From: Pristiophorus japonicus
Lineage: Eukaryota
Assembly (NCBI RefSeq): GCF_044704955.1
Contig: NC_091984.1
Span: 144,026,001-144,090,000 of the forward strand
Length of the DNA stretch: 64,000 nt
Direction of reading: 5' to 3'
A model generated the notes under the pieces. It saw only the letters and a list, made by a program, of their open reading frames with translations. It was not told the DNA's origin and made no database searches. This document shows, piece after piece, positions 1 through 52,705 of the stretch; within the stretch, counting starts at the first letter, position 1, and each line of letters begins with the position of its first letter. The position numbers were made by a program, and so were the translations under genes.

Positions 1-2756
1 TGTTGGTGAGGACTGGGACGATTTCGTTGAGAGGCTCCAGCAGAGCTTTTTCATGAAGGTCTGGCTGAGAGATGCAGCGGCTGACAAGCGAAGGGCGCAT
101 CTACTGACCAGCTGTGGACCTTAGACGTACGCGCTGATGAAAGACTTGCTCGCACCCGAGAAGCCGGTGGACAAAACCTTTGAAGAGCTCAGCAAACTGA
201 TCGGTGAGCACCTCAAACCGGCGAGCAGTATACACCGACACCAATTCGATACACACTGACGTCGGGAAGGACAGAGCATACCGGACTTCGTTGCGGACCT
301 TCGGCGCTCGGCCAGCCACAGTAAGTTCACAGACGCCTGCAGTGGTGACATGTTAAGGGATTTCTTTATTGAGGGCATTGGTCAGGTCGGGATTTTCAGA
401 CAGCTAATTGAGACCAAGGACTTGACCTTGGAAGCGGTGGCGTTCATGGCTCAGACCTTCATGGCGGGGGAGGAGGAAACCAAGACAACTCTGCTTCCAA
501 TGAGGCAATGGATCAGGGAGTTAACATTGTAAACGCGACTCAGAATCCCGCAGGCAGGCAAGGGCAATTCAACACCACTCAGGCAGCAACAGACTCTAGA
601 GTGGGTCCTCAACAGAGAGAATGGCAGGTTGAATGGACATTTACGCCATCACGGTGGACAATGCATCACGAGATGGGGCCATTGACACCCACTAAAAGAG
701 TGCTCAAGAGTAAACAAAGAGACAATCAGAGAGGAATGCCTGGTAACAGCCCTTTTGTTCACAACAATCTCAGCTCATGCTGGAGGTGCGGGGGCAGACT
801 TGCTGCAAAAACCTGTAGGTTTCAACAATTTATCTGTAGAAATTGTAACTTCAGTGGACATTTAGCCAGAATATGCAGGAAGCCTGCAGCGAGGCTAATT
901 TACGAGGCAGATGAACCAGAAGAGGGGTCTGCAAGGCAGGTTGATGCTTGGGACAAAGCTCATATACCAAAACGCCACCCATAATGATGAAAGTCCTATT
1001 AAACAGCATCCCCGGTACACATGGAGCAGGACAGAGGGGCCAGCCAGCCACTTAGGAGTGTCCAACAATTCGAGAAGTTATGGCCACTCCGAGCTAGCAG
1101 ACCCAAACTAGAACGCATTGACACGCAATTACGGATGTACACCAAAGAGATCATCCCAGTGCGAGGCAGTGCAATGTTGCTGGTCACACATAATGGATCA
1201 GAGAACCAGCTGCCACTCTGGAAAATGGTCCCGTGCTATTGCGGAGGAGCTGGCTAGCCGAGATGAACTGGAAATGGGGGGATGTGCACACCATTTCATC
1301 CGTGGAGCGAAGTTCATGCTCACAGGTCTACAGAACTTTGAGTCATGATTTCAACCCGGTGTCGGGACTTTCAAGGGTACCAAAGTAGTGATACGCATTA
1401 CCCCAGACGCCAGACCAGTGCACCACAAAGCCAGAGCTGTGCCGGATGTGATGCGTTAGAAAATTGAGAGCGAGTTGTACAGGTTGCTAAGAGAGGGCAT
1501 AATTATGCCCGTTGAATTCAGTGACTGGGCAAGCCCCATCGTCCCTGTCCTAAAAAAGGATGGCTCGGTCAGGATCTGTGGTGACTATAAGGCCACTATC
1601 AAACGAGTGGTTCTACAAGACCAATACCCGCTTCCGAGAGCGGAGGAACTTTTTGCCATTCTGGCAGGCAGCAAGCTGTTCACCAAGTTGGACCTCACTT
1701 CAGCCTACATGACCTAGGAACTGGCCAAACAATCCAAGCTACTGACAACCATCACCACGCACAAGGGGCTGTTTGTCTACAATAGGTGTCCATTTGGCAT
1801 TCAATCAGCAGCCACTTTCTTTCAAAGGAACATGGAAAGCCTGCTCAAATCCATCCCTGGAACAATCGTATTTCATGACGACATCCTTATCACGAGTCGA
1901 GACACCGAGGAACACCTCCACAACCTGGAGGAGGTGCTACGCCGACTGGAAAGAGTAGGCCTGCGACTAAAGAAGTCCAAGTGTCTGTTTTTGGTCCCAG
2001 AGGTCGAGTTTTTGGGCAGGATAGTTGCTGCAGACTGGATCCGGCCTACCGAAACCAAAGCGGAGGCGATTCGTCGTGCGCCCAGGCCCGGCAACACATC
2101 GGAGTTGCGTGCACTTCTGGGACTCTTGAACTATTTCGGGAACTTACTGTCGAACTTCAGCACATTGTTGGAGCTGCTACACATACTCCTGTGTAAGGGT
2201 TGAGATTGGTTTTGGGGGTCTGTCAGGAACGGGCTTTCAATCGAGCGCGGAACCTGCTTTGTTCAAATAAGCTGTTGACCCTGTACAAACCCTGTAAGAA
2301 ATTGGTTTTGACATGTGATGCACCATCCTATGGGGTTGGGTGCGTGTTACAGCAGAATAATGATGAGGGCCAACTCCAAGTTGTGGCTTATGCCTCCAGG
2401 TCGCTCTCCCAAGCAGAACGGGGATATGGGATGGTTGAAAAGGAAGCACTCGCATGTGTCTACGGGGTGAAAAAGATGCACCAGTACCTTTTTGGCAGAA
2501 GGTTTGAGTTAGAAGCGGACCACAAGCCGTTAACATCCCTGTTGTCAGACAACAAAGCTGTCAATGCCAATGTGTCAGCTCGCATACAGCGGTGGGCTCT
2601 CACGCTGGCTCCGTATGACTACACCATACGGCACCGGCCAGACACCGAAAATTGCGCTGACGCGCTCTGCAGGCTTCCACTGGCCACTACAGAGGGGGCA
2701 GCGGAGCAAAGTGCTGAGATAGTCATGGCCATTGATGCCTTTGACAGCGCAGGCTC
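1..2756 (+). mobile_element. Degenerate Ty3/Gypsy LTR retrotransposon (gag-pro-RT-RNase H), truncated before integrase
   Basis: Gag-like LRDFFIEGIG and zinc-knuckle remnants CWRCGG and CRNCNFSGHLARIC. RT motifs WASPIVPVLKKDGSVRICGDYK, KLDLTSAY and FHDDILI. RNase H motifs LTCDAPSYGVGCVL, EKEALAC and DHKPL. Many stops and frameshifts. Confidence 0.92.
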
Positions 2757-3628
2757 GCTGTTCTTTAACAGTTCAGTCAAATGTTTGGGTAATGGTGGGA
2801 TATAGTATCCAACACGCGAGATGTATCCCTCGAGGTTCGTAACGTATCATTGACTGTAATATAGATATGTTTGTTGTCTGAGATAGGAATTATTCTTTCT
2901 TGTGCTAACTGTGCCTCTACCTGGGGTTTGAAACAAAAGGAAGAATCTGTCAGCATTTTAGGGAGAGGTTTTAATCTGCTTGCGATCAGTTCGGTCGCAT
3001 TTACTGCCTTTGGTCAAGGTCACACAGGAATCAAAACCCTGCGTCCAATTCATTCCTGACCCGAAATCCTTCATTGTCATTTAAAAACAATCCCCACACC
3101 TCCCCTGCACTTGTGGCTAGATCCAACCACACAGACATAAATCCCTTGTTCCGCCATCCACCACTTTTCCCAACACAATTTCACCCCTTCTCTTGTTCCT
3201 GTGCTCCACCTGTTTGAGTTATTACCCAGTTTCTCCCATTCTGTGGATGCATTAACTTTTCCCCTGCCTGTTTTCTGTAACCACCACCACCCTCCCATGG
3301 GGGCAATCCCTTTACATTCCAGACAAACTCGTCTCCCCTCTCTCACCCGTACATTCCTGGTCGTGATGTTTACGCTGGGGCAGGACACTGACACCTCCCC
3401 AAGTTTACCCTCGGTTTGTCTGGAGTACTTGGTCGAATTTGACCCTAACCACCCTGGCCAGCTCCCAGTGTGAGCAGAGGCGTTTGTGCCCTTGTTGCTC
3501 CGTATGGCTCCCCCTTGAGTTACAGTGGGGCCGGTTCCTCCCATACACCCGTGTGTAAGGAATGTCTCGGTGTCTCCCCGATCTCCCAATCCTTTAATAA
3601 TAATGGCCATCCACAGGCCTATCCACAA
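2757..3628 (-). pseudogene. env-like/accessory glycoprotein gene remnant of ERV-like element 1, with a putative Ig-fold domain
   Basis: ORF 3077-3628 has a hydrophobic N-terminus (WIGLWMAIIIKGLG), five N-X-S/T sequons and the pattern VRVREGRRVCLEC...WWWLQK...EQGIYVCVV. Frameshifted continuation to about 2757 (MNWTQGFDSC; AVNATEL...SSFCFKPQ...VNDTL) adds more sequons. It lies directly 3' of integrase behind a pyrimidine tract. Confidence 0.6.
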
Positions 3629-3853
3629 CGTCCACCTCCTCTCGTACCCTTGGCTCGATTCGCTCCAAGAAAGACAAAAATGAAAGAAATACCTTTGCTC
3701 TGTGGGGCCTCCCCCTCACAGATCCTCCTTCAGTTATTCACAGATGTACATAACTCCTTTTTACAATCACTGCTTCCCTCTCCTTTTATCCCGATGCTTG
3801 GGCTTACAGAGGCTCGGGGGTGGAGATGGAGGAGGTGTCCAGGGCACCCTAGG

Positions 3854-6800
3854 TCACAGTACCTGACCACTCCACCTTACTGCTCCGTCCCTTACTTCTC
3901 CATCCTCATCATCCCACAGTATTGGTGGGAGGCTTACACTGATCAAACTCATTATTGTTCCTGGGGCCTTCGCCCGCTTTTTACTTTTCTCTCCGGGGTT
4001 GTACAGCTTACACTGGTTTATATGGAACCATTTTATATGTTTTGGCAGCTGGATCGCGTACACCATAGGGCTTGCCTTGTCTACAATGCTATATGGTCCT
4101 TTGATCAATGGTTCAAATGCCCCTATTCTGGTATAATTCCTGACCATTACCTGATCCCCTACCCTCCATTCCTGTGTAACCCGGGGTTCCAGCAGCAGTT
4201 TATTCTGCTGGTGCTGCCTGCCCATATTGTGAGCTTCTTCCCAATGCAGCCCCTTCAGAGTACCATACAGATCTCTGACAAACCTGTCCCGTGTGATCTC
4301 TTTAACCTGCGTTTCAGTCAGGACTGGTGCTAGGATATGGGTCGGGGTCATCATTAGTCTCCCTGTCATCATGGCATGTGGGGAGTGTCCCGTACTCTGA
4401 GAGAGACTGGCTCAGTGGTTCATCAGTATTCGGGGTCGGGTCTCACCCCATTTCTTCGGGGTATCTCCTTTCTCCTTCCTAAGCCTCTCTTTTAAGGTCC
4501 GGTTTGTCCTCTACTGGATCTAACGATTGGGGATTATACGTCACATGCCATTTCCCCTGTATCCCTAACAGCTTTAGGGTGGCCTGCATTACTGCTCCGG
4601 TGAAATGACTCCCTTGATCTGATTCCACTATCAGGGGCAGTCCCCATTGAGAAAATACGTCTAGCACCAGAACCTTTGCTGTGACTATCGCGGTGGCCCC
4701 GACATGGAAAAGCTTCAACCCATTTTGTAAAGAGATGTATTAACACCAAGCAATATTTATTGCCTCTGCCTGAGGTGGGCAGTGGCCCAATCGAATCTAT
4801 CTGTATAGACTGCCATGGCCCCTCTACCCCCCTCGTGTGTCCCAACGGAGCCTTCCTCGGTGGGGGTCTGGATTGTTTGTGGCACATACCAGACAATTCT
4901 GGCAATAATCCCTGACATCACTTCTAAGCCCGGGCCACCATCCCATGGCTTCTACTTTATTCCACATTGTTTCTGGCCCTGGATGTCCAGCTCCTGGACC
5001 CACATGCACCAGCTGCAAGAATTCTTCCCTGCATTGCCCTGGCACGATCCAACTATCTTCCTTGAACAACATTCCTTGCTTTACTGCTCTGTCTGCAGCT
5101 CCCAAAGGTCCCGCTACAGACTTCCCATCTATCTTGTCCCTAATCGCTGCTCTAAGGTCAGCATCCCGTAGCTGAGCCTGTTTTAAATCAGGCGGCAATG
5201 GTACTTCTTTGGGCCCCTCTCTGCCTGTTACAGCCATGATCTGTCCACAGTGACATGGGTCCCAAGGTGTCCCTTCTCCTGCCCCTGTTTTAGCCAGTGT
5301 GTCTGCTTTCTCATTGCCTTCCCACTTGGGCTCTATCTTAGAGTGTGCTTTGACCTTTTGGATATAGTAACCCTTCTGGTCCGTACCCGTGACATCCAAA
5401 ATGACTTTTAACAATGGAACCATCACCAACCATTTTCCATCTGAGGACTTAAACCCTCGCCTCGCCAATATGGCTAAATACTCTGTACAGGAGTTAGAAA
5501 TGAACATGGAGTCTGAACATATCGTATAGGGAGTTGGGAATTCGTTCGGGTGTGTGACTACATACGCTACTGCTGCTAGCTCGGTCTGCTGCGTACTTAA
5601 AGTGTTGGGGATTTTATGGCTTTCTCTATCCCTGTCTCAGGATCGTAAGTCCCACAGCCTGTCTTTCTCTCTCTGTTTATGACTGAACTGGACTCATCTA
5701 CATAGACGTCCCTGCCTGCCGGGTGATCTCCTGCTCAGAATCCCACATCTACATCCCACACTCCTTCCACTGAACACACATGAGCTGCCCCCGGATAAAC
5801 CAGGCTCGGGGCGAGCTTTGGTTCTCCTGGCCTCTCGACCTTCAGGTCTAACTGAGTCAGCAACAATGTCCAGCGGGCAATCCTGTTACTGCTCACTGTC
5901 CCACCTTTCATTCTACCATCCAATAACATTTGTGTTGTGGTGTGACAGGTCAGTAAAGTTACTGTAGCTAACCCTGTGAGCGACCGAAAATGCTTCACTG
6001 CCCAACATATTACTAACAGATGTCGTTTGCAATTCGAAAAGCTCTTTTCTACTTCTTTAAGAACTCGGGAGACGTAGGCCACCGGTCTCAGCTTGCTGTG
6101 TCGCTCCTGGAGTAACACTGCACTCAAACTGTCCCCAGTCATTGCTACCTCCAGACTAAAGTCCTGGTCCCCATTAACTGCTCCCGATGCTGGTGCTGTC
6201 TGTAACACCTCTTTTAACCAAATGAAAGTTTCCTGACAACTCTCACTCCATTCCCACTCTACTCCTTTCCGAAGAAGCCTCAACAAAGGAGCTGCCATGG
6301 TTACATATCCCTTTATGAATTCCCTGCAGTAACCCGTTATTCCCAGGAAAGACCTTACTCCAGACACGTCCTTAGGAACAGGTAGTTCCTGGACTGACTT
6401 TCTCTTAGCTCGATCTATGGCCCTTTCTCCTGCCCCAATGGTCAAACCTAGAAACTGCACCTCCTCTTTGCCTATTTGAGCTTTCTGGAGATTTACTTTA
6501 AAACCTGCTTCTTTCAACAAATGCAGTAACTCACTCAATAATGGCCCGTGGTCCTCCGCACTTTCGGAGAATAACAACAGGTCGCCCACGTATTGGACCA
6601 ACCGATCTGGCTGACTAAAACCGTTTAATGCCTCGGTCATACTCTGGTGAAAGATCGAGGGACTGTTGTGAAACCCTTGTGGAAGACATGTCCACATATA
6701 CTGCTGACCTTTAAAGGTAAAGGTAGATTTATACTGGTCCTCCCGTCTCAGGGGAATGGACCAAAACCCGTTTGAAATGTCCAGCACGGTGAAAGTTGTT

Positions 6801-7660
6801 GTGGCCGCAGGGATACTCCCGATCAAATCCGCTACCACTGCTACCGTGGGCGCACAGGCTGGAATATTTTTATTCAGGATTCGGTCATCTACCGTGGCCC
6901 TCCATGAATTATCGGGCTTCTTTACTGGCCATAGGGGTGAGTTTACATGTGTGGCTATGGTCCTCAACACACCTTGATCCACCAGGGAATTTATAGCAGT
7001 TTCCAAATCCCTTTCTGCTTCCCGGAGAAAATTATACTGTTTCTGGGGTCGTGTCATCGAATCCCCATCTATCTTCACCTCTACCCTAGATGCTATCCTG
7101 CAATCGGGCTTGTGCATTGCAAACGCATCCATATTCTCCCGTACATACCCTTGATGCTGGGCCGGAATGTTATCGACTAATCGTTCTCAGTCATAACTCT
7201 CTTTCGGCTTCATCGTGCAGGTGCTGCCTTTGTCTGTACTGTCCCTGGGAATCACTACGATCTCTCCCATCTTATCTGCATCAACTGCCCCCCATAGACA
7301 ATTGTTTTCCATATCCACTGTGGTGTGGTGTGCCAACATGTAGTCGGCCCCGAGAACTCCCGAACCGGGCTGTTCCCACTTCATTAAAATGCCCTCCCAT
7401 TTCATTATGTTCGGCCCTAACTCTATGGTTAAGGGTTTCCACACTGCCCCAGCCTGCTCATTACCCGTAAAACCCACCAGTGTAAATGGTACTCCGCTCA
7501 ACCACGGGGAAGTGGTCGGATTCGGTGAGTGGACAACCGTGCTAGAGGCTTCTGTATCTACTGGATCCCTTCCCCTAACTGTTTCCACCTTCACATCCAC
7601 ACATGGCCTGCCCCACCCATCATATATGAGCAGACACAGGTATTCTGGCTGGGTGCACCG
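3854..7660 (-). pseudogene. pol: pro-pol of ERV-like element 1 (protease, RT, tether RNase H, RNase H, integrase), frameshifted
   Basis: ORF 7187-7600 (VDTEAS, mutated protease site). ORF 5735-7132 (RT plus tether). RNase H VYVDESS at about 5700 and KVKAHS...GNEKADTLAK. Integrase HVGPGAGHPG...[24 protein letters not shown] and FEPLIKGPY. Confidence 0.9.
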
Positions 7661-9261
7661 TCACAGTGGGGGTGCCGACACATTGGGTCCCTTTTCTCCC
7701 ACTGCTGCGTCCAGCTTTCCTCCACCCATGCCCATAACCTGCTGTAATGCGGCCACTAAAACCTGCACTGGGTCGTCGGCTACCTTCTTCTGGTCTTTTC
7801 CTGCCTCAGCACCTCGTACCCTGGCTTCCCTCCTTTAGAGAGCCTACAATCCTTGCTCCAGTGTCCCAACTTCCCACAGTTAAAACATTCACCTTTCGAT
7901 CGACCCGCATTACCTCCCTCTTGTCTCCATTCTTTCTATGGCCTAACCTCTCCTTTTACTTCGTGCACCTTCCCGTTTAGTTTCTCCTCCTCCCCTTGCC
8001 TAGACTTAAAGCGAGAGTTCATCTTCTCAGCACCCCTGCCTCTGTATTCTGGAGATGGTCTGGGTCAAACCATGCTTCAACCTTTGCTCTGAGCCATGGC
8101 AAACTGTTACCATTACGGTTCTCAGCCAATGGTTCCTGGGTTCCCCTATTAAATCTGCCCACACCAGATTTCCTCCAGCAGCCCTGAAATAAATCGCCCA
8201 CAGTCTGTCTGCAAACGTATCGGGTGATTCGTTTACTTGCTGCCTAGTCTGTTCTACCTGCCAGAACGGACTACCCTGACTGTACCCGAGCACTGCCATC
8301 ATTTCCTCCTTTAAGCCCTGTGGGGTTCCTGCACCTAACTTGGTGGCTGTCGACAAGCTCTGATAAAGCTTCCCCTCCAGCGAGAGCAGTGTTAGCTTCA
8401 CTTTCTCCTCCTCGCTGCAGTTATTGATACCCGCTATCTGCTCTATATTAGTAAAATGAACAGAGGCATCTCCTCCTTGCTTTAACTGTACTACACCCGT
8501 CAGCATCTCCTGCAGCTGAAGCGGTGTGTATGGGATCACTAGTCGCTCTGTAATGGTGCCGGACCACCATTTGGGGGGGTGGGCCGAATTTCTGCTGTCT
8601 CAAAGGACACATCGGTTTCAGGGGTCCCGGTGCCTCGGGAGCCGGCCGATGCTCGCTATACTCGGGCCCATCATCTGACTCTTTCCCCTCTGGATCCCAA
8701 TCTTCCTCGCCGGTTCCGGGTGCCCTGAGACAAACCATCCCTTTGGTCCCGTCTAACTCTGCCGTTAATTGGTGGATCTTTTCCTTACAAGGTCCGTGAT
8801 CTGCTCTCGCATAACCCTGTTTCTGAGCTACCTGATAGGCTATCGACTCTCCTGACCTGGTCCTCTGCCTCTTTGGCTCTTTCTAAATGCCTTTCACTTT
8901 GTTCAATGTGGGTCTGCTGCTGCTTTTTGCACTCGGTCACCTGGCATTGTAAATACTCAAAGTGATTCCGTGCCGTTTCTTCCTTCCTACTCTGGTCCTG
9001 CCTTTCCTTCTCCAAACTGCCTACCTCACCCTTTAACCCTTTATTCTCCTCCTCCAGCTTTCCTACCCTTTCTCTTAACAGTTGTGTCTGCTTCTGCAGG
9101 CACATGAGCCAAACCGCCTTCTCTTTTGACCCTTTGTGGTTACTACTGACTGTCCACTCTGCCGCTTTTTCTTGCGGATCCCCAGAATGCAGCATTTCCC
9201 GTGCCCATGGCTCTGAAATGTCCAATTTGTTGCCTATATATGCAGCTACCTTAGCCTCCAT
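7661..9261 (-). pseudogene. gag: gag of ERV-like element 1
   Basis: N-terminal coiled-coil ORF 8785-9261, proline-rich PMCPLRQQKFGPPP, capsid-like QQVNESPDTFADRL and zinc knuckle CFNCGKLGHWSKDC (about 7846-7887). Ends at TGA 7661-7663. Confidence 0.8.
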
Positions 9262-10099
9262 GGACTACCTACGACTGCTCTAGCCATGGGCTCTACCGCG
9301 TTTTGCTGCGGTGAGTCCATTTCCAGTGCCTCTGGCTGAGAAATTCTCCCTGACTACCTTGGTGTCCCCTGAGACCACCTCGCAGTGACCTGCGGTTCCT
9401 GTTACTCTGGCTTCTCTCTGTGGCTACCATAGTCGACCCGAGACTACTCCGGCCTGTCAGAGACTTTCTCTCCTGGTCCTCTAGTCGCCCTTGAGATCAC
9501 CCTTGGCCTCCCTGAGACTATCAGCGACTACTATTGACTTTTCTCTGTGACCACCCCAGTCAACCGAGATTACTCCAGACTATCCGAGACTGTTTCTCTC
9601 CTCAGGCTGCCCTGGCCGCCTGTGAGATTATCCCTGGCCTCCCTGAGACCCCTGTGCAGACTACCTGCGATTACTTCTCCCAGTGGCTGCCCTAGTCAGC
9701 CGGAGCTCTTCGGCTACCCTGGTCCCCCTTGAGATTCCCTTGGTCTCCCTGAGACCCCTTCGCAGACTACCTGCGGCTTTCTCGGTGGCTACTTTAGTCA
9801 ACCCGGGATTACTCCAGCCTAGCCAAGACTGTTCCTTCCTCTGCTGGCTGCCCTAGCTGCCCTTGAGAGTACAATGGTCTCCCTCAGACCACTGAGCAAC
9901 TACCTGAGACTTCTTTTCTCAGTGGCTACCCTAATCGACGGAGACGACTCAAGCCTATCAGACCCTGTTACTCTTCTGGTCACCCTAGCCGCCCTTGAGA
10001 AGATCCTTTTCGACTACCTTATCCGACCTTAGACATATCCAAGCCTCCCTCAGGGTTTTTGCCCTGGTATGTGTCCGTGATACTATTCCCAAAGCCGAG

Positions 10100-10117
10100 G
10101 TCCTGCCGCGGTCACCA
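10100..10117 (-). promoter_or_regulatory. Primer-binding site of ERV-like element 1 (tRNA-Ser-like)
   Basis: Minus strand TGGTGACCGCGGCAGGAC directly after the LTR end (...CCTACAGAAA). Matches the element 2 PBS at 17 of 18 positions. Confidence 0.8.
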
Positions 10118-10118
10118 A

Positions 10119-10782
10119 TTTCTGTAGGTAGTTTGTTTTTCACTCTACTCTGATTCTTAGACCTGGGAACTTGTAGTGGGAAAGGACAACACGTGGCACA
10201 ACATTTAGGCTTCACCCAGTGTCAGTTTTATTGTGCACAAAACCGTCAAAAACTATAGGACTAGACTTCTGAGAGAAATCGACTGAAACAATACAATTGC
10301 CCTTCCTGGCTGTAGCTATTGTAGGTTTGTGGTCATTGGTTCCGTGACCGGTTGGTTCTTCTTCTGGCCGTTCTCTGCAGTGCTGTTCCTTCTGTGTACG
10401 TTCCGTACAACATGTCTTTCCGTCCGTTTGTTTGTTTGTTCTTTCGACCTGTGTCCATCTGTACATGTGTCCTTCTACTTCTCCTGTGTGCTTCTTCTTC
10501 CGTCTGTTCCTGTCCTTCTTCCATCTCCTGCTGAGCTGCTTCTAGCTCACATATTTATATCCAGGTTATGACTGATCTCCCGCCACTGCGGTTTCTGATA
10601 AAGTGCATCAATACATTGTTTTGTGGTCCCCTTGGTTGATTGATTACAATAATGAACTCGTCTGTTTTCCCATTTGCACACTGAGTCTGCAAGGCTCAAG
10701 TTGATTTCTCATCTTAACACCTCATCCTAAAAAATGTGCAACTGTTGTGGTTCCTTTGTTGTCAGGTCCTTTTACATACCTG
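10119..10782 (-). repeat. 3' portion of the 5' LTR of ERV-like element 1
   Basis: Minus-strand TATA (GGATATAAAT, about 10554-10563) and AATAAA (about 10227-10232). Terminal CCTACAGA is shared with the element 2 LTR end. Probably continues beyond the Harbinger insertion (13676 to about 13830-13890). Confidence 0.65.
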
Positions 10783-13675
10783 GGGCTAGAACCTCCTCTT
10801 TTATTGCCTGTTTAATGCCCACTTAACACCCATTTTACCACTGAAATGACATATAATGCCCAGATATCACCCATTTTGGTACAAAATGGAAACTGACGGG
10901 CTTTTTTAGGAGACTTGTCGCCGAGCGTTACTTTCCCAATGGGCTTAACGCAGAGAATAAATATTATCGCCCACCTACTTTTTTGGGGCGGAATCAGCAG
11001 AATGGGCAAATTCAACGCCCATATTATCACCCAGCGTTACTTTCCTCATGGAATTAATGCCGAGATTCAACATTAACACCCGGCGACTATTTTTTGTCAT
11101 GAACAGCATATTTACCCAAAGTAACGGCCATGGAGATCATCCACCGTCAATTTCACCACCTCGTACACATATCGCCCACAATATCGCTCGCTCAAAAAAC
11201 CGCCCACAAAAAGTGGAACTAACCAGAACGAATCACAGCGTTATGGACGCCGTGATGTAGATCACATGTCGCGTCCTTTCACCTCGACAGAGTTCGGATG
11301 TACTCTGCAGGTCGTTGGAGTTGATGTGAACATCTCTGAAAACATCTTGACCACACTGTGACCGATTGGAATTGAAGAGGTGTGCTCGTCGGGACATTCT
11401 TTGCTTGTGTGCAATTGGTGACAGACAGAGAGCTACTGCAATGGGGCCTGTCCTTTCTCACCCTCTCTTGGTGACCAAATATATGCAGCAGACTCAACAT
11501 CGCTGAAGGAACGCTACATTGCATTATGTGCCCAATGTACGAAATAACGGACAGATGAGGAGGACCAGACGTTACACCCCCCGCAAGTACAAGGAGAAGC
11601 ATTCTTACCTCGACTTGCCTGACACCACCTGCCTTCGGAGACTGCGCTTCCACAAAGAGGTTATCACTGAGGTATGCCAGCTGATAAGGGCAGGCCTACA
11701 GCCTGGCAGCACCATCAGAACTGCACTGTCCGTCGAGGTCAAAGTCACCACGCCACTATCGTTCTATGCCTCGGGTTCTTTTCAGGCCACAGCTGATGAC
11801 ATTTGCAGACTTTCACAGCATGCCACACATTGCTGCATTAGACAGGTCACTGAAGCCCTGTACGCACACAGGAGGGACTTGATCAGCTTCCCTATGACCA
11901 GGGAGGCACAGAGTGAGAGGGTTCGAGGTTTCTCCAGAATTACAAACTTCCCCAAGATGCAGGGAGCGATAGACTGTACGCACATCGCGATGTGAGCAAC
12001 TTTTCAGGATGCTGAGGTTTTCAGGATTCCACAAGGGATTCCACTCCCAGAATGTCCAGCTGGATGTCGACCACCAGCAAATTATACTGGCAGTGAATGC
12101 TCAATTTCCGAGCAGCATCCATGATGCGCACATCCTGCGTGAGAGCACTGTATCTGACTTGTTTAACAATGAGACACAAGGTCAATGCTGGACGCTTGGG
12201 GACAAAGGATATGGCCATGCCACCTTGCTGATGTTCCCCCTGCGTGACACCCACACCGAGGCCGAGAGGTGCTACAATGAGAGCCACAGAGCAACTCGCA
12301 ATATCGTGGAGAAAACGTTGGATTGCTGAAGCAGCGCTTTAGATGCCTGGACCACTCATGAGGCGAGCTCCAATACCACCCTGAGCAGGTAGCTCAATTC
12401 GTGGTGATGTGCTCCATGCTACACAACTTGGCTATCAGGCGGGGACAAGAATTGCCTGATGAGCCTGACAGTCCATCTCACCAGAGAGAGGAAGAGGAGA
12501 ATGAGGAGGTGGACGCAGACATCGGGTCAGACAATCAGGCTGACGCTGAAGACATGCCCCGCCCTTCTGTAGACCGCATGAAAGGGCCCATGGTGGCATG
12601 ATAGCTGCAAGAGCCTTACGTCAGGAGCTCATCAATGATCGCTTTGCCTGAAAGAACGTTGGTGTTATTTCCACGGCTGACACACTGCTGGGTGTGCAGG
12701 TCATAAATCAATTGTGGGCATCACCTTGCTGACCATTAAAGTTTACTTTGCTTGAAGTTAAGTGTGATTATATCCTTTGATGTTAACGAATCACAGCTAT
12801 CTGAGCCAATGTGCTGCAAGGTTTTGTTAAATAAAAAACATTTAAACCGAACATTAGTCTGAAATCATCAGTAATTCTGTACAAACCAACCCTTCCCCTG
12901 AGCCACCCCGCTTCTCCTCCCCAACTCTACCCCTTCCCCTTCCCCTCCTGACTCCAAGCTGCCTGGCCACCGAGATTCTCAGGCAATGCTTCATTGGGAG
13001 GTGGGTGGTGACGGCCGAGGCACTGCTTGTCGGAAACGCGAGAGGACGGTCCCAAGGTGGGAACGTGCTTCGAGCCAGAAGCGAGATGTTGCTCCTGGCT
13101 CTCATGTGTGGTTGGCAATGGGGTTGCGTCACCTTGAGGTGCAGTGCGGCACTCCGGGACCACTGGGAGCCCTCTGCCACCAGTGTTCCTGGCTACCAGC
13201 TCCAGGGCCTCCTCCATCCCTTACATGTTATATGTTATTTGTGGGACAAAAACTCGATGCTAACTATGTTCTTGGTGCTTAGTGCGCTTTTTGCTGCTGG
13301 TGAATCTCCCTCGTGCCTCCCACAACAGCCAAACAAACACACACCACAGACACACATGCTTTCAGTGCCTCTGAGCTCCCTCTCTCTCCGTCTCCTCTTC
13401 TGCGTTTGTCATGGTGACCCTTGACCTCCAGAATCGCGGGAATGGACCATTGCCATGCTGTTGCTCAGGACGGCCAAACTTTATAGCAGAAGGTCAGAAA
13501 ATTTAACACTACCGCCCATTTGATATCGTTCGCGGTAACGCACATTTTCAAAGATATAATCGAAGTGTTTTGAGAATGGGCGAGAAGCCGACGATCTGAA
13601 AACCCTTTTTTACCGCCCACACTGGAAATCACGCCCATTTTTGGGTGCTAAGCTCAAAAGTGGAGGTTCTAGCCC
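10783..13675 (+). mobile_element. PIF/Harbinger DNA transposon with 20-bp TIRs
   Basis: Left TIR GGGCTAGAACCTCCTCTTTT; right end reverse-complements to GGGCTAGAACCTCCACTTTT (19/20). Flanks CTG/TTG form a near-perfect 3-bp TSD. Contains a transposase remnant. Confidence 0.9.
11519..12650 (+). pseudogene. Harbinger (HARBI1-like) DDE transposase, disrupted
   Basis: Motifs CLRRLRF, LSFYASGSFQ, QGAIDCTHI, KGFHSQNVQ, SSIHDAHIL, LGDKGYG, YNESHRATRNIVE and CSMLHNLAI. Stops and frameshifts present. Confidence 0.9.
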
Positions 13676-22962: not shown

Positions 22963-22998
22963 GATAAGTTTTGTGTCGGATCATAGGCAAGACCCGAA

Positions 22999-24620
22999 AT
23001 GGAGGATAGGATTTCCTCCGACGTGTTCAATAAGATTAACGTGTCTCAGCCATGGGTGCTGGCGATGCTGTGCTCTGAGAATCCCCAGGATAGGGATGCA
23101 GAGTGGACAGGTAGCAGGGATCACAGCAAATCAAAGGAAAAAGTGATTTGGCTCCTGTGTCTGCAGAAGCAAGTTCAACTGTTCAGGAAGCAGGTTGAAA
23201 AGCTCGGGAATGAGCTTAAAGGGTCTGAGGATAGGTCACACATGAGGGAGATAGTCGGGAGCAGAGTATTAGAGGAACTGCACGGGGAAAGGCAAAAAGA
23301 CGTGAGCAAGAGGAGACCTCCCGTAACATGGTGGAATACCCACAGTGTCAGGTTACAGAGGCCAAGGTAAATGAGCAGGCCCTACGGGAGGAGAATGTGA
23401 GGCTAATAGCGAAAGCTGGCAGCTTGGAGGGTCAGCTAAGGGATATAAAGATAGTTTATAAAGTAGCCAGGAGTAGAGGCTATGAGGAAACAGATCACGG
23501 ATCCTGTAAGGAAAGGATCCAAAAATTGAGCCAAGCCTTGTCTGGAGCCAGAGGTTTGGCCTGTTTAATGTCACCGGGGGAAACCGGGGTAGACTGGGAC
23601 AAGGAGGGTCAGGAGCCTGATGATAGGGCTCAGGATAGGGAAGTCCGACCGTTGCCGGAAGTACCACCGACACCAATGTGTCCTCTGCGGCAGCAGAAGT
23701 TTGGTCCACCCACACCAAACGGTGAGCAGGACCCACTGCAGAGCGATTACGTGGTCCCGATCACAACCCCTCAGCTGCAAGTCACGCTAGCAGGGACCCC
23801 TCAGTTCACTTTATGGAAGTAGAACAGGTAGGGGGGGGTCAACGGATGTAGTGAGGGCGAGATCAACAGGCTGATTCTGTCCTCCCTTGATTGGAGATTG
23901 TATCAGGGCTTATCCGCACCCACAAAGTGAGTAGAAGGCACCATAGAGGGGCTGAAAGACGAGACCCTGAGGGCCATGGGGCATACCCAGGGGAGCCTGT
24001 TCTTACAGGTAGAACGGTTGAGACAGCTGGCCGGCGAGGCACTAGATGCATTCGCGGACAGGTGATGGCCTGTGTACGTAAAGTCAACTGGAGGGACGCT
24101 CGACTGCACGCAGTTGATAGGGACCCCAGGAATCACTGGCTCAGGGTCCTTGTGGCCAACAGCTTGCCAAGAATCAGGGCCAGAGCAGCAGCGTAGTTTG
24201 ACCCCAAGAACCTCGCCAATATGGAGACAGGCATGCTCAGAAAGCTGAGTCCAGCCTTTAAGGCCGATTCCGGGAAAGAGGTCAAATCAAATGGAAGGAT
24301 CCACGAAATGAAAGCCAGTGAGGGTAATAGGAAGGAATGGCGACAGGAAGGGGTTAGTACCGACAAGTCCAGGACTTGTTTCGGGTGTGGGAAGCCGGGA
24401 CACTGGAGGCGAGGCTGCCCATTCCCAAAAGGGGAAGGGGGCCAGACCGAGGGGGTCCTCCAGTGCAAAAGCCGCGTGTTACAGAGGGGGAGGGGACGAC
24501 CGACGAGTCATTCGAGTTTCTGGTGGCTGCCCGACGGAAGGTTATGGGAAGAACAGAGACAAGTTAGATGCTGCTGTGAGCAGGGAAATGCCCATCACAC
24601 CCACATGCCCCCCACCCTGA
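22999..24620 (+). pseudogene. gag: gag of element 2
   Basis: MEDRISS...KEKVIWLLCLQKQ is homologous to element 1 gag. Contains PMCPLRQQKFGPP and CFGCGKPGHWRRGC. Frameshifted; ends at TGA 24618-24620. Confidence 0.85.
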
Positions 24621-27600
24621 CGAGAACCCGCCCAGCCTGAGTACCTGTGTCCACTCACGTACACTGAGTGGGGCAGTCTCTGGGTAAAGATGTGGATGGA
24701 GATGGAGCAGGGGAAATATTTGGTGAGCACCGGGGCTTCCAGCACGGTGGACCATTCAACAAACCCGACCAATTCACCCTGGTCTAGCAGGGTCCCATTC
24801 AGCCTCGTGGGGTTCATGGGGAATGAGCAGGCTGGGGCAATCTCAAAACCCCTGGCCACAGAACTAGGATCTCTCCATAGCACGTGGGAGTGTGTCCTGA
24901 TGCAATGGGAACCGTCCGGATCGGGAGTCCTTGGGGCTGACTTTATTTTGGCCCACCGAGTGATTGTGGTTTTAAGGAATCACTGCCTATGGGGGGCAGT
25001 GGGTTCAGATAAAGCCGGAGGTGACAGTGATCCCAAGAGATGGGGAAGGAAGGGGTAGTGTGGTAGTATGGAGCCCAAGGGGAATTACGGCCTAGAGCAG
25101 CTGGTCTGTAATACCCCGGCCAACTATCCGGCGAACGTGTGGGACAACCTCGCCTCGTTCACCACTCACCAACACGACTGTGGCAGGGTGACGGGGTAGA
25201 AGTCAGGGTACAAGGGGACCCCATGTCACGACCACAGAAACAGTACAGCTTCCCCAGAGAGGCAGAAGCCGACTTGGAGACGGCACTGGGATCCCTGGTG
25301 GAACAGGAGGTGTTGAGGCCGATAGCCAGCCAGGTAAACTCACCACTTTGGCCGGTTACGTAGCCCGACCAGTCGTGGAGAACCACCGTGGACTATTGGG
25401 TGCTCAATAAAAATATCCCAGCCTGCTCCCACAGTCGCGGCTGTTGCTGACCTCAGAGGGAGCATTCCAGCGGCCGCAACCACTGTCACAGTGCTGGATA
25501 TCTTCATTGGGTTCTGCTCCATTCTCCTTAAACGGGAAGACCTGTACAAGTTTACCTTTACATTTAAAGGGAAGCAGTACACCTGGACATGCCTTCCCCA
25601 GGGGTCCCACAACAGCCCCTCCATATTCCACCAGTGTATGGCAGATGCACTCAAAGGCTTCAGCCGACCCCAGCAGCTAATCCAGTATGTGGACGACTTG
25701 CTTTTGTTCTCCGTGGAGCGGGAGGAGCACAGGCCACTGCTGGATGAGCTGTTGAGGCTGTTGCGGGAGACAGGGTTTAAAGTGAACCCAAAGAAAGCCA
25801 GATCGGCCGGGAGGAAGTCAAATCCCTCGGGCTGACCGTAAGGGCTGGTGAGCGAGCGATCGATGAGGCAAAGAGGAAGGCAGTACAGGAGTTACCCGCC
25901 CCCAAGGATGTAACCGGGGTAAGATCCTTCCTGGGACTGACAGGGTAATGCCGGGACTTTATAGAGGGGTACGTCGCCACGGCAGCCCCTCTGCTTCGGC
26001 TCCTCCGCAAGGGAGTCGGGTGGGAGTGGGACCAGAACTGTCAGGAAACGTTCAGCCGCCTCAAGGAGAATTTACAGATGGCGCCCGCACTGGGAGCCAT
26101 TAACAGGATTGAGGAATTCTTTCTGGAGGTAGCAGCCAGCGGGGACAGCTTGAGCGCGGTGTTGCTCCAGGAGCGGAACGGCAAGCTCGACCCGTGGTCT
26201 ACTCCTCAAGGGTTCTCACTGAAGTAGAACAGGGATACTCTAACTGTGAGAGGCATCTCCTAGCCACGCACTGGGCCGTAAAGTGCTCCCAACTCTTTAC
26301 AGGATCATCCCTGATCGTTCTACTGACCCAACACACCCCCAGCCAGATGTTGTTAGACGGGAGGATAAAGGATAGGACAGTAAGCCGTGCCTGCATTGCC
26401 CGCTGGACTTTATTGCTCTCGCAGATGAATCTGAGAGTGCAGAGGTTGACCGAGCCAAAGCTGGCTGTGAATTTCATCTACCCAGGGACGGCCCATGCAT
26501 GTACTGTGGAAGAGGTGTGGGACGTAGATGTGGGATTCCGGGCCAGGATACACCCGACAGGCCGGGAGATCTACGTAGACGGGTCCAGTTCGGAGGTGAA
26601 TGGGAAGCGTCTCACTGGGTGTGGGATTTATGACCCCACAGCTAAGGTAGCGAGAGCCATTAAACTCCCCAGCACCCTGAGCGCTCAGCACGTCAAACTG
26701 TCGGCGGTGGAGTACGTGGTTATCCATCCCATCGAGTTCCCCACCCCCTATACCATCTGTTGGGATTCCATGTTCACCTGTAATTCGTGCAATGAGTACT
26801 TGGCCATCTGGGCCTGGCGCGACTTCAAGTCTGTAGACGGGAAGCTCCTAGCAACAGCACCGTTGCTAGGGGGAATGTTGGAGGTTACGGGCACCCGGGG
26901 AGATTACTACACACACAAGGTTAAAGCCCAATTCAAAGACAGAGCCCAAGGAGGAGGACAACCAAAGGGCAGACGAGCTGGCCAATCAGGGAGCCAGGGA
27001 AGGGGTATTCTGGGTTCCGTACAGAGCAGGTCCAGTAGCAGCAATCCGGGACAAGGGAGGCACACAGCGGGTAGCTTTGGCCCCGCACTTAAAGCAAGTC
27101 CAAGCACAGTATCCCATCCTTGTACAAAGGGGGAACGGCAAACCGGTAGAGGGTCCCAACAAGTATGGCTTAGTCCTGGTGGACGGATTCTCCCAGTGGG
27201 TGAAGGCCTTCCCATGCCGAGCAGCCACGGCACTAGCAACAGCAAGGATCCTGGTGAGGGAAGTGTTCTCCCGATGGGGACTGCCACAGGTCGTGGAGTC
27301 TGACCAAGGGAGCCATTTCACGGGTCAGGTGATGCAGGCCACCTTCAAACATCTGGGAATACAAGGGAAGTGGCATGTGGCTCACAACCCCCAATCATTG
27401 GGGATTGTGGAGCACATGGACCGGACACTGAAAGAAAGACTGAGGAAGGAGATAGTGCCGTTCCCAAAGAGATGGGACGAGGTCCTGCCATTGGCATTAA
27501 TGGGTGTCCGGGCCAGCCCCTCCAGAAGCACAGGGTACTCCCCACATGAGGTCATCACCGGGAGGGTTATGTGCACCCAACCCATGTGTTGGTGCCGGTC

Positions 27601-28138
27601 CTCACAGAAGCTCAGGTCAGGGAGGTAAACTGGGACAGGTTTGTCCAGAATCTGTTTGAGGTTTTAAAACAGATTCACTGGCAGGCAGCCAGTAACCTGG
27701 GGAACCAGCACCGGGAAACATCGGTTGCTGCTCGAGCCCCGGAGAAGCCACGAGTGGAAAGTGGGAGACCAGGTAATGTTCAGGAACTGTGCCCGAGTGG
27801 GGGCATTCGAGCCACTGTACATGGGGCCTTATAACATCGTAGATAAGGCCAGCTCCATGGTATATGCAGTCAGACTCCGGAAACGCACAAAATGCTGTCA
27901 CATCAACCAGTGTAAGTTGTTTAACCCCGAGGGGGGGAAGACAAAGGCAAAGAGAAACCAGGGCATGATAATGAGCCTGGTGGACACGGGTCTTCCTCCC
28001 GTGGTGTGGGACGATGATGATGACCCAGAGGGCGGGGCAGTAAGGAGAAACAGTCAGATACCACGGCATAGGGCGCCGTGGACGCCTCCTTACTCACGGG
28101 CCATGAGCCGCAAGAGGCCCCAACAGGAGAGATTTTAA
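24621..28138 (+). pseudogene. pol: pro-pol of element 2, disrupted; integrase HHCC domain deleted
   Basis: YLVSTGAS (mutated protease site), QYVDDLLL, tether RNase H YSNCERHLLA, RNase H IYVDGSS...WDSMF...HKVKA, integrase [10 protein letters not shown] and FEPLYMGPY. Confidence 0.9.
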
Positions 28139-28383: not shown

Positions 28384-29483
28384 TGTAGCACCAGCTTTCT
28401 GGCCATTTCTATCAACAAAACTTTAAACCCTTAAATCCAAATCCCCAAGAAAGAACTGTCCTGTTTGGCGAGCTTGTGGGGATGGCACTGAGGTGCATTC
28501 ATATACAACCGGACATTTCACACTGACAGGCTGGGTGGCAGGGAACCCAGGCCCATTGATGTCATCACCATCTAAAGTGATTCCTGGGAACAATATCCCG
28601 AGAGGTAACTCAGAGACACTGTACCTTTGCATTGTTAAAGCACAGTCACCACTCAGTCCCAACCCAAACTGGTGCAGGACAGGAAATGGCCGGCCCATTG
28701 TCTTCCAGGAGATAAGCCGGTTAAGTAAGATCGGTTTGTGATCGAAACCCATTACCTGATAATGGGGGCCATCAACTCAGGAAACGACAGACATCCAGTA
28801 ATCAGCACCCATTGTCTCTCCAGACACAAGGCCTGGGAGCGGGAAAACAAAATATCATCTTTCACAAAGATTTCAAAGGCTATGAGGGGTGGGGAGATTG
28901 TCCAGACAGATTACCGGAGTCAATCCATCGGTCAGTATTGGCGGGAGGAAAGGTGATGGGTTTTGGGGATATAAGGAGCCACTTTGCAACAAGCTCCAGT
29001 TCAGGAGGAAGAAAGCTCCGGAAAAAGCCCAGGACAAAGCTCAGGAAAACCCAGGAAAAATCCCAGGAAAAAGCTCAGGAGCGAGACGTTCAGGAAGAAG
29101 CTGCAAGCAAGACAACGTGCAATCAGGGTGAGCATATTGCCTGCACCTACACATCCACAAGACCACTTAGCTGTGTGAGGGGGTGATTGTAAGTCCCAAC
29201 CAAACCCAAGGGGTTTAGTGCTGGGGGGGTCCTGTGTTAGTTTATTTCACGGGAGGGTTCATTTATTAAGCCGTGGTAACTTAGCATGGCAGGGCTAATT
29301 GGACAAGCCAGGGTTGTACTGTTTTGCACTGTTTATGAGTGGTGTTGTTAATCTTATTGAACACAAAACGGTTGAGCCCGAAAAATGTATGTCCGAGTCT
29401 GATCTGTCCATATAATCCCAATCGTCCAGAACTTGTAGTAGGAAGTGCGTTTTCGTTACGCCCGAGAAAACCACCGACAGACA
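28384..29483 (+). repeat. 3' LTR of element 2
   Basis: Starts TGTAGCACC after the PPT and ends CCGACAGACA. Confidence 0.9.
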
Positions 29484-30885
29484 CCTCCTCAGTACTGCCC
29501 CTCCAACAGTGCTGTGCTCCCTCAGTACTGCCCCTCCGACAGTGCGGCATTCCCTCAGTACTGTGCCTCTGACGGTGCTGCACTCCCTCAGTACTGCCCC
29601 TCCGACAGTGCGGCATTCCCTCAGTACTGTGCCTCTGACAGTGCTGCACTCCCTCAGTGCTGCCTCTTCACCAGTGCGGTACTCTCTCAGAACTGCCCCT
29701 CCAAAAGTGCAGTACTCCCTTACTACTATCCCTCCGACAATCCAGCACTCCCTCAGTACTGCCCCTCCGACAGTGCGGCACTCCCTCAGTACTGCCCCTC
29801 CGACAGTGCGGCACTCCCTCAGTACTGCCCTTCCAACAGTGCAGCACTCCCTCAGTACTGCCCCTCCGACAGTGCGGCATTCCCTCAGTACTGTGCCTCT
29901 GACGGTGCTGCACTCCCTCAGTACTGCCCCTCCGACAGTGCGGCATTCCCTCAGTACTGTGTCTCTGACAGTGCTGCACTCCCTCAGTGCTGCCTCTTCA
30001 CCAGTGCGGTACTCTCTCAGAACTGCCCCTCCAAAAGTGCAGTACTCCCTTACTACTATCCCTCCGACAATCCAGCACTCCCTCAGTACTGCCCCTCCGA
30101 CAGTGCGGCACTCCCTCAGTACTGCCCCTCCGACAGTGCGGCACTCCCTCAGTACTGCCCTTCCAACAGTGCAGCACTCCCTCAGTACTGCCCCTCCGAC
30201 AGTGCGGCATTCCCTCAGTACTGTGCCTCTGACGGTGCTGCACTCCCTCAGTACTGCCCCTCCGACAGTGCGGCATTCCCTCAGTACTGTGCCTCTGACA
30301 GTGCTGCACTCCCTCAGTGCTGCCTCTTCGCCAGTGCGGTACTCTCTCAGAACTGCCCCTCCAAAAGTGCAGTACTCCCTTACTACTATCCCTCCGACAG
30401 TGCAGCACTCGCTCAGTCCTGCCCCTCCAACAGTGCAGCACTCCCTCAATACTGCCCCTCCGCCACTGCGGTACTGTCTCAGCACTGCCCTTTGATCAGT
30501 GCAGCTATCCCATAGTATTACCCCTCCGACAGTGCAGCACTCGCTCAGTACTGCCCCTCCGACAGTGCAGCGCTCCCTCAGTACTGCCCTCCGGCAGTGC
30601 AGCACTCGCTCAGTACTGCCATTCCGACAGTGCAGCAGTTACTCACAACTGCCCCTCCAACAGTGCGGCACTCCATCAATACTGCCCCTCTGGCAGTGCA
30701 GCACTCCCTCAGTACTACCCCTCTGACAGTGCAGCACTCCCTCAGTACTGCCCATCTGACAGTACGACACTCCCTCAGTACTGCCCCTCTGACAGTGTGG
30801 TACTCCCTCAGTACTGCCCCTCTGACAGTGCAGCACTCCCTCAGTACTGCCCCTCTGACAGTGCAGCACTCCTTCAGGACTGCAC
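29484..30885. repeat. 33-bp satellite with a 330-bp (10-mer) higher-order repeat
   Basis: Unit CTCCCTCAGTACTGCCCCTCCGACAGTGCGGCA. The same variant pattern recurs at 29657, 29987 and 30317. Confidence 0.95.
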
Positions 30886-32313
30886 AGCAGTGTATGTCTT
30901 TATTTTACACTCAGGCCCCTGGAGTAGGGCTTGAACCCACGATACAACATTGCATCACTGGATGCCGCACAGTCTGAGCTGTGAGTCATATCCCGACCTC
31001 AGTTGGAACAGCTAACTCAGAACAAACAACAGCAACTTTTATACAGCACCTTTAACACAGTAAAACTTCCCGAGCGCTTCACAGGAGCGTTATAGAATAA
31101 AGATTGACAGCGAGCCACGTAGGGAGACATTGAAAATTGCAGCTCAGTCAAATTGTGAGGGAAATTGGCAGTGCTGCCTTCATAACAAAAGGGGGCGATG
31201 TTGGTTCTGAAAAGACCAAATTTTTGGACAATTTCTGTGTAACTCAATTGATTGGTTTGTAAAACCCGTTTGTTCCAAACCTCCAGTCAGGTTTGCAGAA
31301 TCATTTCCAGTTCCCCACGTGTCATTTGATGGTGGATCTCAGCGTGTATCTCCTCGTCCGCTCGTGAGGCGGTGTCTCAGACCGATTGGCAGGTCAGCAG
31401 CCACTCCGCACTGCAGCGAGCATCGGCAGGTCATTCCACTGTGGAAGGCCTCACCGCAGAGCTCGGTGCACAGGGTATATCCACACAGAGACGCTCAGCC
31501 GCCAGGTACAGCAGCAACAACCTGCATTGCTACAGCAACTGGAACATTAGAACAACATCCCGAGGCAGCTGACAGAGGCATAATCTGGTCAAAGTGGTGC
31601 TGAGCCAAAGGGGGAGAGGCTGGGAGGGGGATCAAAACCCTCAGTCACAGATTGGGTTTGAAGGGAGGTCTTAAAAGAGGAGAGGGGTGGAGTGGCAGAG
31701 AGGTTTAGGGAGCAGGGAGTTAGGGCCCAGGCAGCTGAAGGCATGGCCCCCAATGGAGGGGGAAGGGAAGGGGGGAATGGATAAGAAGCCTGAGACAGAT
31801 ACAGCGGCCCCTGAACACAACAACAACTTGCATTTATATAGCGAGTGTTGTGACAATGACAGACAGTGAGAATATAACCCAGATAATGTAACACAGTATT
31901 TGCAGCACTTGACACTGTGGGGAAAGCTTGCAATTTTAAATCCATGAGGTGTATATAAGCGAGAGCAGGACCTGTTTGTGGCCGGTGCGGAGATCACCAC
32001 TTACAGAAGGTAGTTACTGCAGGGAATTCAGGGCCACAGTGACCTCCTGGACTAGTTTCCATCGCCCGGGGGGAGAGCGGGGGCAGTCGGAGAGGAGTTT
32101 CCCAGATTTATTTCCCCCAATGGGTTTTTTACCTGGTTTTTCGCCTCTCCCAGGAGATCAGGTAGTTTTGGGTGGGGTGGAGAGTCTATACTGTGATACA
32201 CAAGGTATCACAATTGTGTGGGACGGGCTGGATGGACCACAGGGTCTTTACCTGTCCGTCACTGTCCGTGGGTTTGGGTTTCAAAAATTTAGAGCTGAAT
32301 TGGAAAGAAAGAC

Positions 32314-52406: not shown

Positions 52407-52705
52407 TAGAGGGTAGCTGTTATGTTGCTGACAGTAATAGTCTGCGACATCCTCGCTCTGCACGTTGCTGATGCTCAGGGTGAACATGTTGGACTTGTAA
52501 CTGCCGGTGAAGCGATCGGAGGTTCCAGTGAAACGAGATGTTGCCGAATAGATCAGCAGAGTGGGTTTCTGCCCGGCTTTCTGCTGGTACCAAGCAACAT
52601 AATTGCTAACGGATGCACTGGCGGTACAGGTGATGGTTGCAGTCTGTCCCTCACTCACTGACAGCACCGGGGGAGACTGGGTCATGATGATGTCCCCACT
52701 GATAC
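52407..52705 (-). CDS. IGKV: Ig kappa-type light-chain V exon
   Basis: Acceptor TTTCCCCCTCAG|GT. Encodes (G)[99 protein letters not shown] with no stops. Confidence 0.97.

Follow-up and report, generated by a model that had tools for sequence, protein, structure and literature searches.

The open reading frame on the minus strand at 3077-3715 of the window, a stretch of 64,000 nucleotides from the genome of Pristiophorus japonicus, is, as judged from the frames of related copies, the 5′ part of a retroviral env gene, encoding the N-terminal third of Env, and no accessory gene. We think it likely that this env belongs to a dead endogenous retrovirus (ERV), likely a member of the snakehead retrovirus (SnRV) clade, and that its Env combines a likely immunoglobulin (Ig) domain with a predicted F-like fusion protein; receptor binding would probably be the task of the Ig domain. 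The customary division of retroviral envelopes is into a gamma and a beta type. Envs with an Ig head and Envs of the F-like type are each already known, the latter from the lokiretroviruses (PMC7947760). An SnRV-clade Env that unites the two would constitute an added layout, bearing on how frequently retroviruses have acquired env genes, and its Ig head is a definite candidate for the domain by which a fish retrovirus attaches to the cell. A literature search, which stopped short of subscription papers, bioRxiv supplements, nine of the 23 lokiretrovirus Envs and Hart et al. (1996), turned up no F-like or SnRV-type Env described as bearing an Ig domain.

Table 1. Features of the provirus and of its flanking element in the window.
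Feature	Position	Strand	Evidence
5′ LTR	10123..10783	-	blastn: recurs downstream of env in independent copies, over its full length in L032 and L039
Primer-binding site, pairing with the 3′ end of host tRNA-Arg(TCG)	10100..10117	-	tRNA matches in the genome
gag, broken into several frames, its N-terminal part coiled-coil and the following part capsid-like	8027..9264	-	ORF list; coiled-coil Pfam matches
Protease remnant	7187..7660	-	Position and likeness to the sister-family protease
Reverse transcriptase and tether (degenerate RNase H)	5735..7186	-	RVT_1 E 1e-30, RT_RNaseH_2 E 1e-19
Second RNase H and integrase, several frames	3854..5636	-	RNase_H, Integrase_H2C2, rve and SH3/IN C-terminal matches
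Pyrimidine tract, likely acceptor site for env splicing, with damage in this copy	3669..3690	-	AG after the tract in other copies
Signal-peptide-like hydrophobic stretch, no ATG ahead of it in the window copy	3584..3634	-	Kyte-Doolittle peak, residues 28-44
Glycosylated N-terminal arm, conserved WPGWLGSN motif	3383..3583	-	Alignment A1; pLDDT under 50
Ig-like Env domain with six conserved cysteines	3080..3382	-	Motifs, profiles, model, conservation
Premature stop, then out-of-frame env continuation	2943..3079	-	blastn to other copies reaches 2943
Late env ectodomain piece	2753..2952	-	blastn, tblastn
Ty3/Gypsy-type element, unrelated, abutting the cut env end, outside the provirus	1..2752	+	RVT_1 and RT_RNaseH matches

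The anatomy of the provirus is given in Table 1. The complement of the primer-binding site together with the T-loop has 945 matches in the genome as against 0 for the reversed control, and ARAGORN, run with introns at three tRNA loci, called Arg(TCG) in two and SeC in the third. The gag of the sister family carries a zinc knuckle and its protease matches gag-asp_proteas (E 1.8e-4); the protease remnant of the window copy has no Pfam match, and the catalytic motif of its reverse transcriptase (RT) is damaged, reading YVGD. The pyrimidine tract is likely the env splice acceptor, being followed directly by an AG in 18 of the 20 independent copies covering this position; this AG is absent from the window copy. 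Env of the sister family aligns by tblastn over 3634-2960, and an internal deletion of about 1.15 kb has removed the furin site and the fusion peptide. The gene is then cut at 2753 by the Gypsy-type element, and neither a transmembrane segment (TM) nor a 3′ LTR follows its last piece.

The first-pass annotation had placed a glycoprotein ORF immediately 3′ of integrase and behind a pyrimidine tract, and both elements of this description stand: the stop-to-stop frame of 212 codons opens 139 nt past the end of the integrase frame (3854), with the tract where it had been described, and the five N-glycosylation sequons attributed to the ORF were all counted. The signal-peptide-like start fared less well, since the hydrophobic stretch exists but position 3628 is TTG rather than ATG and the sole nearby ATG (3610) sits within the stretch itself; most independent copies have a methionine just upstream of it. 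The parent retrovirus is very abundant in the host genome of 5.9 Gb, in which the window ORF gave 8,571 first-look candidates, 150 of them scored; among named sequences, those nearest to the env come from skate and sharks. A family A copy (L021) has no stop from the Ig-like region through the furin site into the heptad region, and family B (for example L041), about 45-50% identical, is open over the same span. Among 12 loci of the young sister family C, picked for long open frames, eight have one frame running from the Ig motif through the furin site to the TM, and five have a signal peptide. In a skate protein (P0002) the Ig-like head is likewise joined to the body in a natural open Env frame. 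The full ORF, which the first-pass annotation had proposed to rebuild from other copies, runs in the sister copies as a single frame behind integrase, from the signal peptide over the furin site and the fusion peptide to the heptads, the Cys-rich region and the TM; the window copy is truncated. Because independent copies read on into the fusion protein, the stop at 3077 counts as damage to the window copy, and because they continue through the furin site to the TM, the window ORF reads as the front of Env. One further family C copy (L074:2062-6666) has lost an internal segment, so that its pol now runs in frame into the Ig head and the remaining env.

Pairwise counts on natural copies give a net dN/dS between families of 0.13-0.16 for the Ig core and 0.10-0.13 for the F part where dS is measurable (against family A dS is saturated, with dN at 0.44-0.50); the dN/dS comparison that had been suggested therefore returns a value of about 0.15 for the Ig core, indicating purifying selection. 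The window copy itself is dead and drifting neutrally: across 21 near-identical loci of the light-chain region, the window included, there are 10 synonymous, 37 missense and 4 nonsense changes, a pN/pS of 1.2. Purifying selection between families together with neutral drift here indicates that the domain mattered to the virus and that the present copy is dead. At least 20 repeats of the defective provirus, 97-100% identical in nucleotide sequence, are spread among the light-chain V clusters on C8 (143.4-148.8 Mb), C1231, C53 and C113 of this genome, and they therefore mark recent segmental duplications of the light-chain locus.

The hallmarks of an Ig V/I-set domain are present in the head, namely a B-strand cysteine, a C-strand tryptophan and an F-strand GxYxC motif, and the canonical cysteines (3316 and 3133) are spaced by the 61 residues previously stated, within the usual range of about 55-75. 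The two extra cysteines already recognized (3325 and 3175) are both conserved and lie on the modelled B and E strands, where a second disulfide is plausible; a further conserved pair (3382 and 3109) had been overlooked, and the six conserved cysteines suggest three disulfides. All six, like the W/GxY motif, persist in 22-25 of 24-25 copies of family A and in nearly all of families B and C, which bears out the conservation of the Cys/Trp/GxY residues in other copies. The Pfam profile Ig_3 matches the window ORF with E 0.075 and family C with E 0.0014, at 14-19.6 bits against a curated cut-off of 30; it was found at E<=1 in 18 of 31 aligned relatives (best E 3.9e-4), more than expected by chance, although none of the 31 reaches the cut-off. 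Residues 83-212 were modelled with nine strands, and the Foldseek neighbours of this model are mostly Ig domains (antibody V, neuroplastin, basigin; best E 1.8e-3), but its pLDDT is 52 (43-62 over the Ig-like domain in the long model), and the Z scores of 7.0-7.2 to obscurin and titin I-set domains in VIA are tied with those of sandwiches outside the Ig superfamily (IgSF), such as a phage baseplate protein and chagasin. The top VIA matches have Z 7.0-7.5 and rmsd 2.7-3.4 over 81-99 residues, Z under 8 being common. Profile matches to the PDB include DIP-eta (E 0.008) and CD22 (E 0.04) as well as TCR V-alpha and CRTAM, and in the alignments to these proteins VxLxC, the C-strand tryptophan and GxYxC fall in register. 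A distant shark relative, P0015, is automatically named 'Ig-like domain-containing', with an Atlas score of 0.92 to V-set clusters. Taken together, the head is very probably an Ig-superfamily domain.

The origin of this domain is less clear. No cellular donor was found at E<=0.001 among 1.84 billion representatives, the PDB matches are scattered over TCR, CRTAM, CD22 and DIP with no single donor by sequence, and a word-index search for the Ig region in longer proteins gave no matches, a result of little weight. Of the earlier proposal of an Env surface subunit with a captured Ig domain, the first part is supported by the frame shared elsewhere with the furin site, fusion peptide and TM, by the modelled sandwich with its mostly Ig neighbours and by purifying selection, while capture is left unproven as no host donor was found. 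A light-chain V gene segment lies in the same window (52407-52691, minus strand); its frame is open and a heptamer-spacer-nonamer signal comes after it. The ORF had been described as unlike this neighbouring gene and it is, the likeness being confined to a 32-residue patch at 28%, on which ground an origin from the gene was rejected.

The downstream body of Env is predicted from modelling to be a class I fusion protein resembling the F proteins of paramyxo- and pneumoviruses. When the modelled natural ectodomain of family C was compared by Foldseek, the best match was RSV F (E 8e-12), followed by PIV3 F (5e-11), and NDV and henipavirus F also matched; 237 matches had E<=0.001. The model has a mean pLDDT of 51, reaching 70-88 across much of the body, and the rmsd of the F matches is high (13-35) because the domain arrangement is poorly modelled. 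The predicted body fold is held in common with F, as are the furin site followed by a hydrophobic peptide and the heptads, whereas identity is 10-14%, Pfam PF00523 does not match the Env body and F has no Ig head. Gamma-type Envs are marked by CXXC in SU and by an immunosuppressive domain and CX6CC in TM; neither TLV_coat nor a related Pfam profile matches families A-C, in which the Env body matches F instead. The Env predictions of walleye epsilonretroviruses in BFVD (Q9WHI8, E 4.5e-11, and A4GTG3, E 1.3e-7) match the F-like model, and a fish filovirus glycoprotein in the same collection does likewise.

The F-like Env had made a lokiretrovirus the first guess for the parent element; this was set aside in favour of SnRV on the basis of RT rows from a supplement and of L086, the one viral record (10,688 nt) retrieved with the RT motif of the window, which matches SnRV in RT and in length as printed in the accessible portions of PMC7947760 and PMC12193657. 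A lokiretrovirus RT motif found no matching record in the viral collection. The window element resembles SnRV in its RT motifs, its RT core (44% identity to L086), its gag-stop-pol layout and its dual RNase H. In a 24-row RT tree, which includes neither a lokiretrovirus nor an epsilon reference, the window families group with amphibian and coelacanth ERVs and L086 (support 80/78), and RT core blocks compared by eye are identical at 18/24, 16/20 and 7/8 positions to SnRV as against 13/24, 10/20 and 5/8 to Loki-Bsp. Since L086 shares both dual RNase H and an F-like Env, these two characters do not separate the lokiretroviruses from SnRV. The element is thus likely to belong to the SnRV clade rather than to the lokiretroviruses; the tRNA-Arg(TCG) tail tested has no match at the SnRV primer-binding site.

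The Env of SnRV (L086) likewise has a body of the F-like type and, more weakly, an Ig-like motif at its N-terminus. Env profile A2 picks it out with E 1e-4 among 36 frames, and its F part scores 15.8 bits, a value reached by 0 of 207 scored shuffles (shuffle maximum 2.9), in support of homology between the two Envs. The Ig motif is weak, at 5.2 bits with 1 of 424 shuffles as high (perlecan Ig E 0.05, V-set E 0.08), and the head profile of the close group does not score the SnRV head above shuffles (23/394). The SnRV protein also differs in size, at about 1,130 aa compared with about 775 aa for the shark Env; roughly 400 additional residues separate its head from its F body, and its tail is long. 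SnRV-like ERVs have been reported from elephant shark and coelacanth, and the available parts of those reports make no mention of an Ig domain or of F likeness in SnRV Env (PMC12193657, PMC4422223, PMC4977317). For the lokiretroviruses, the accessible text describes an Env that has in common with the shark protein a signal peptide, an RxKR site, a fusion peptide, a coiled coil and a TM (PMC7947760), as well as likeness to paramyxo/pneumovirus F, a GP..G..L start of the F2-like strand and dual RNase H (PMC7947760, PMC9040795). They differ from the shark element in their RT motifs. Of their 23 listed Envs, 14 were compared and none of these has an Ig head at the N-terminus, 13 passing straight from signal peptide to F2-like strand while one is truncated (PMC7947760); no lokiretrovirus was found in the six chondrichthyan genomes screened (PMC7947760, PMC9040795). 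Canonical and lokiretrovirus Envs have been stated to share no detectable similarity (PMC9040795, in the part available), a claim that an F-like Env in the SnRV clade, if true, would qualify.

In the scheme that we favour, Env would be translated from a spliced env mRNA and cleaved by furin at the RxRR site. The Ig head, kept attached to the surface subunit by the F2-like strand, would bind a cell-surface protein, and the body would carry out F-type membrane fusion. Paramyxo- and pneumovirus F proteins rely on a separate attachment protein, which the head, by binding the cell itself, would replace. A receptor-binding role is suggested by the position of the head, by the precedent of gamma-type Ig receptor-binding domains (RBDs) and by the apparent exchange of heads. 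Ig-like RBD-C domains are described for MLV, FeLV and EnvP(b)1 and a SIRP-derived RBD for Env-Dbi (Hotzel, bioRxiv 2024.03.17.585361, in the portion available, as for the following comparisons). In these Envs the Ig-type domain is likewise N-terminal on the surface subunit, heads have been swapped between lineages, and Env-Dbi combines the canonical B-F disulfide with an extra one, as is predicted for the shark head; however, their fusion machinery is gamma-type rather than F-like, and Env-Dbi aligns clearly to SIRP whereas the shark head has no traceable host donor. Judging from the sequences, the head looks exchangeable among related F bodies, for other Ig-like heads or for a Cys-rich head. 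In the tree of the F part, the sister group of families A-C (P0009, P0011 and P0016) carries a Cys-rich head without the Ig motif; the F-like body is shared and the head is different, which suggests head exchange. With one to six rows per group, hhalign gave no meaningful alignment of the Ig-like heads of distant groups with one another or with the head described here (probability about 1%, tiny alignments).

A receptor-binding head is not the only role that such a domain could play. With Env and its Ig-like fold as proposed, the domain could instead be a glycosylated shield, a folding aid or an immune decoy, the F-like body binding the cell. The headless state of the lokiretrovirus Envs compared would fit this, as would the predicted extra disulfides, the sequons and the fact that constraint on the domain matches that on the F part, no rapidly evolving binding surface being apparent over the domain as a whole; we nevertheless hold it to be rather unlikely, given that the membrane-distal N-terminal position and the apparent head exchange fit the receptor-binding domains of gamma-type Envs. 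Less probable again is a generic viral beta-sandwich that resembles the Ig superfamily without descending from it. Every sequence match is sub-threshold, no donor emerged from the representatives searched and folds from outside the superfamily tie at the top of VIA, all of which this would explain, but it accounts poorly for motifs that fall in register with TCR V-alpha, CRTAM, CD22 and DIP and whose residues are retained almost throughout families A to C.

The first-pass annotation had also allowed for a separate immunomodulatory accessory protein, and the corresponding alternative, a stand-alone secreted immunomodulator of 183-212 aa, accessory or kept by the host within the light-chain locus, would find some encouragement in the at least 20 near-identical copies among light-chain V clusters and in a stop common to 19 of the 20 near-identical copies that span the site. 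The variants among these duplicates are neutral, the splice acceptor and the start codon are damaged and independent copies read on into Env, so that we regard it as very improbable. The short ORF stands as a separate unit because the window copy is broken, and with near-identical duplicates drifting neutrally we rejected the idea that the window encodes a short protein of accessory or co-opted function.

Beyond the favoured reading of an Ig head on an F-like Env, we put forward more tentatively, as a possibility that we do not consider probable, that the whole SnRV clade, its infectious virus included, possesses a hitherto unrecognized kind of Env, a fusogen of the F-like type shared with the lokiretroviruses and topped by exchangeable host-derived Ig heads, and that sharks may have domesticated Ig-F genes. 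If true, this would place an F-like Env inside the canonical retroviruses, contrary to the published view, and three shark proteins (P0015, P0044 and P0065), along with L061, may represent a new syncytin-like type. The three proteins, with one record each from Chiloscyllium punctatum, Scyliorhinus torazame and Heterodontus francisci, are full-length Ig-F Envs of 739-754 aa that are 85-88% identical, and their relatives in the Pristiophorus japonicus genome are decayed; they are candidates for a domesticated env. A candidate co-opted env is also found at L061:1462-3819 (minus strand, on C18), where an uninterrupted frame of 786 codons with its own Ig-like motif lies behind an integrase remnant, its nearest relatives (60-81% identity) being broken or partial. 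A screen of shark genomes for syncytin-like genes required an immunosuppressive domain and a CX6-7C motif (bioRxiv 2026.05.06.723177) and would therefore miss conserved env genes of the F type. Frog Envs (P0019, P0026 and P0030-P0043), from records of Pelodytes and Mantella (16 clustered records), have an F-like body, with an N-terminal Ig-like motif discernible by eye only.

Elsewhere in the window, a second related decayed provirus on the plus strand (22987-28138) retains gag and pol, with no detectable env, and long tandem repeats at 29295-30977 and 32594-33665, with units of 33 nt and about 30 nt, which give repetitive ORFs on both strands, are likely satellite DNA.
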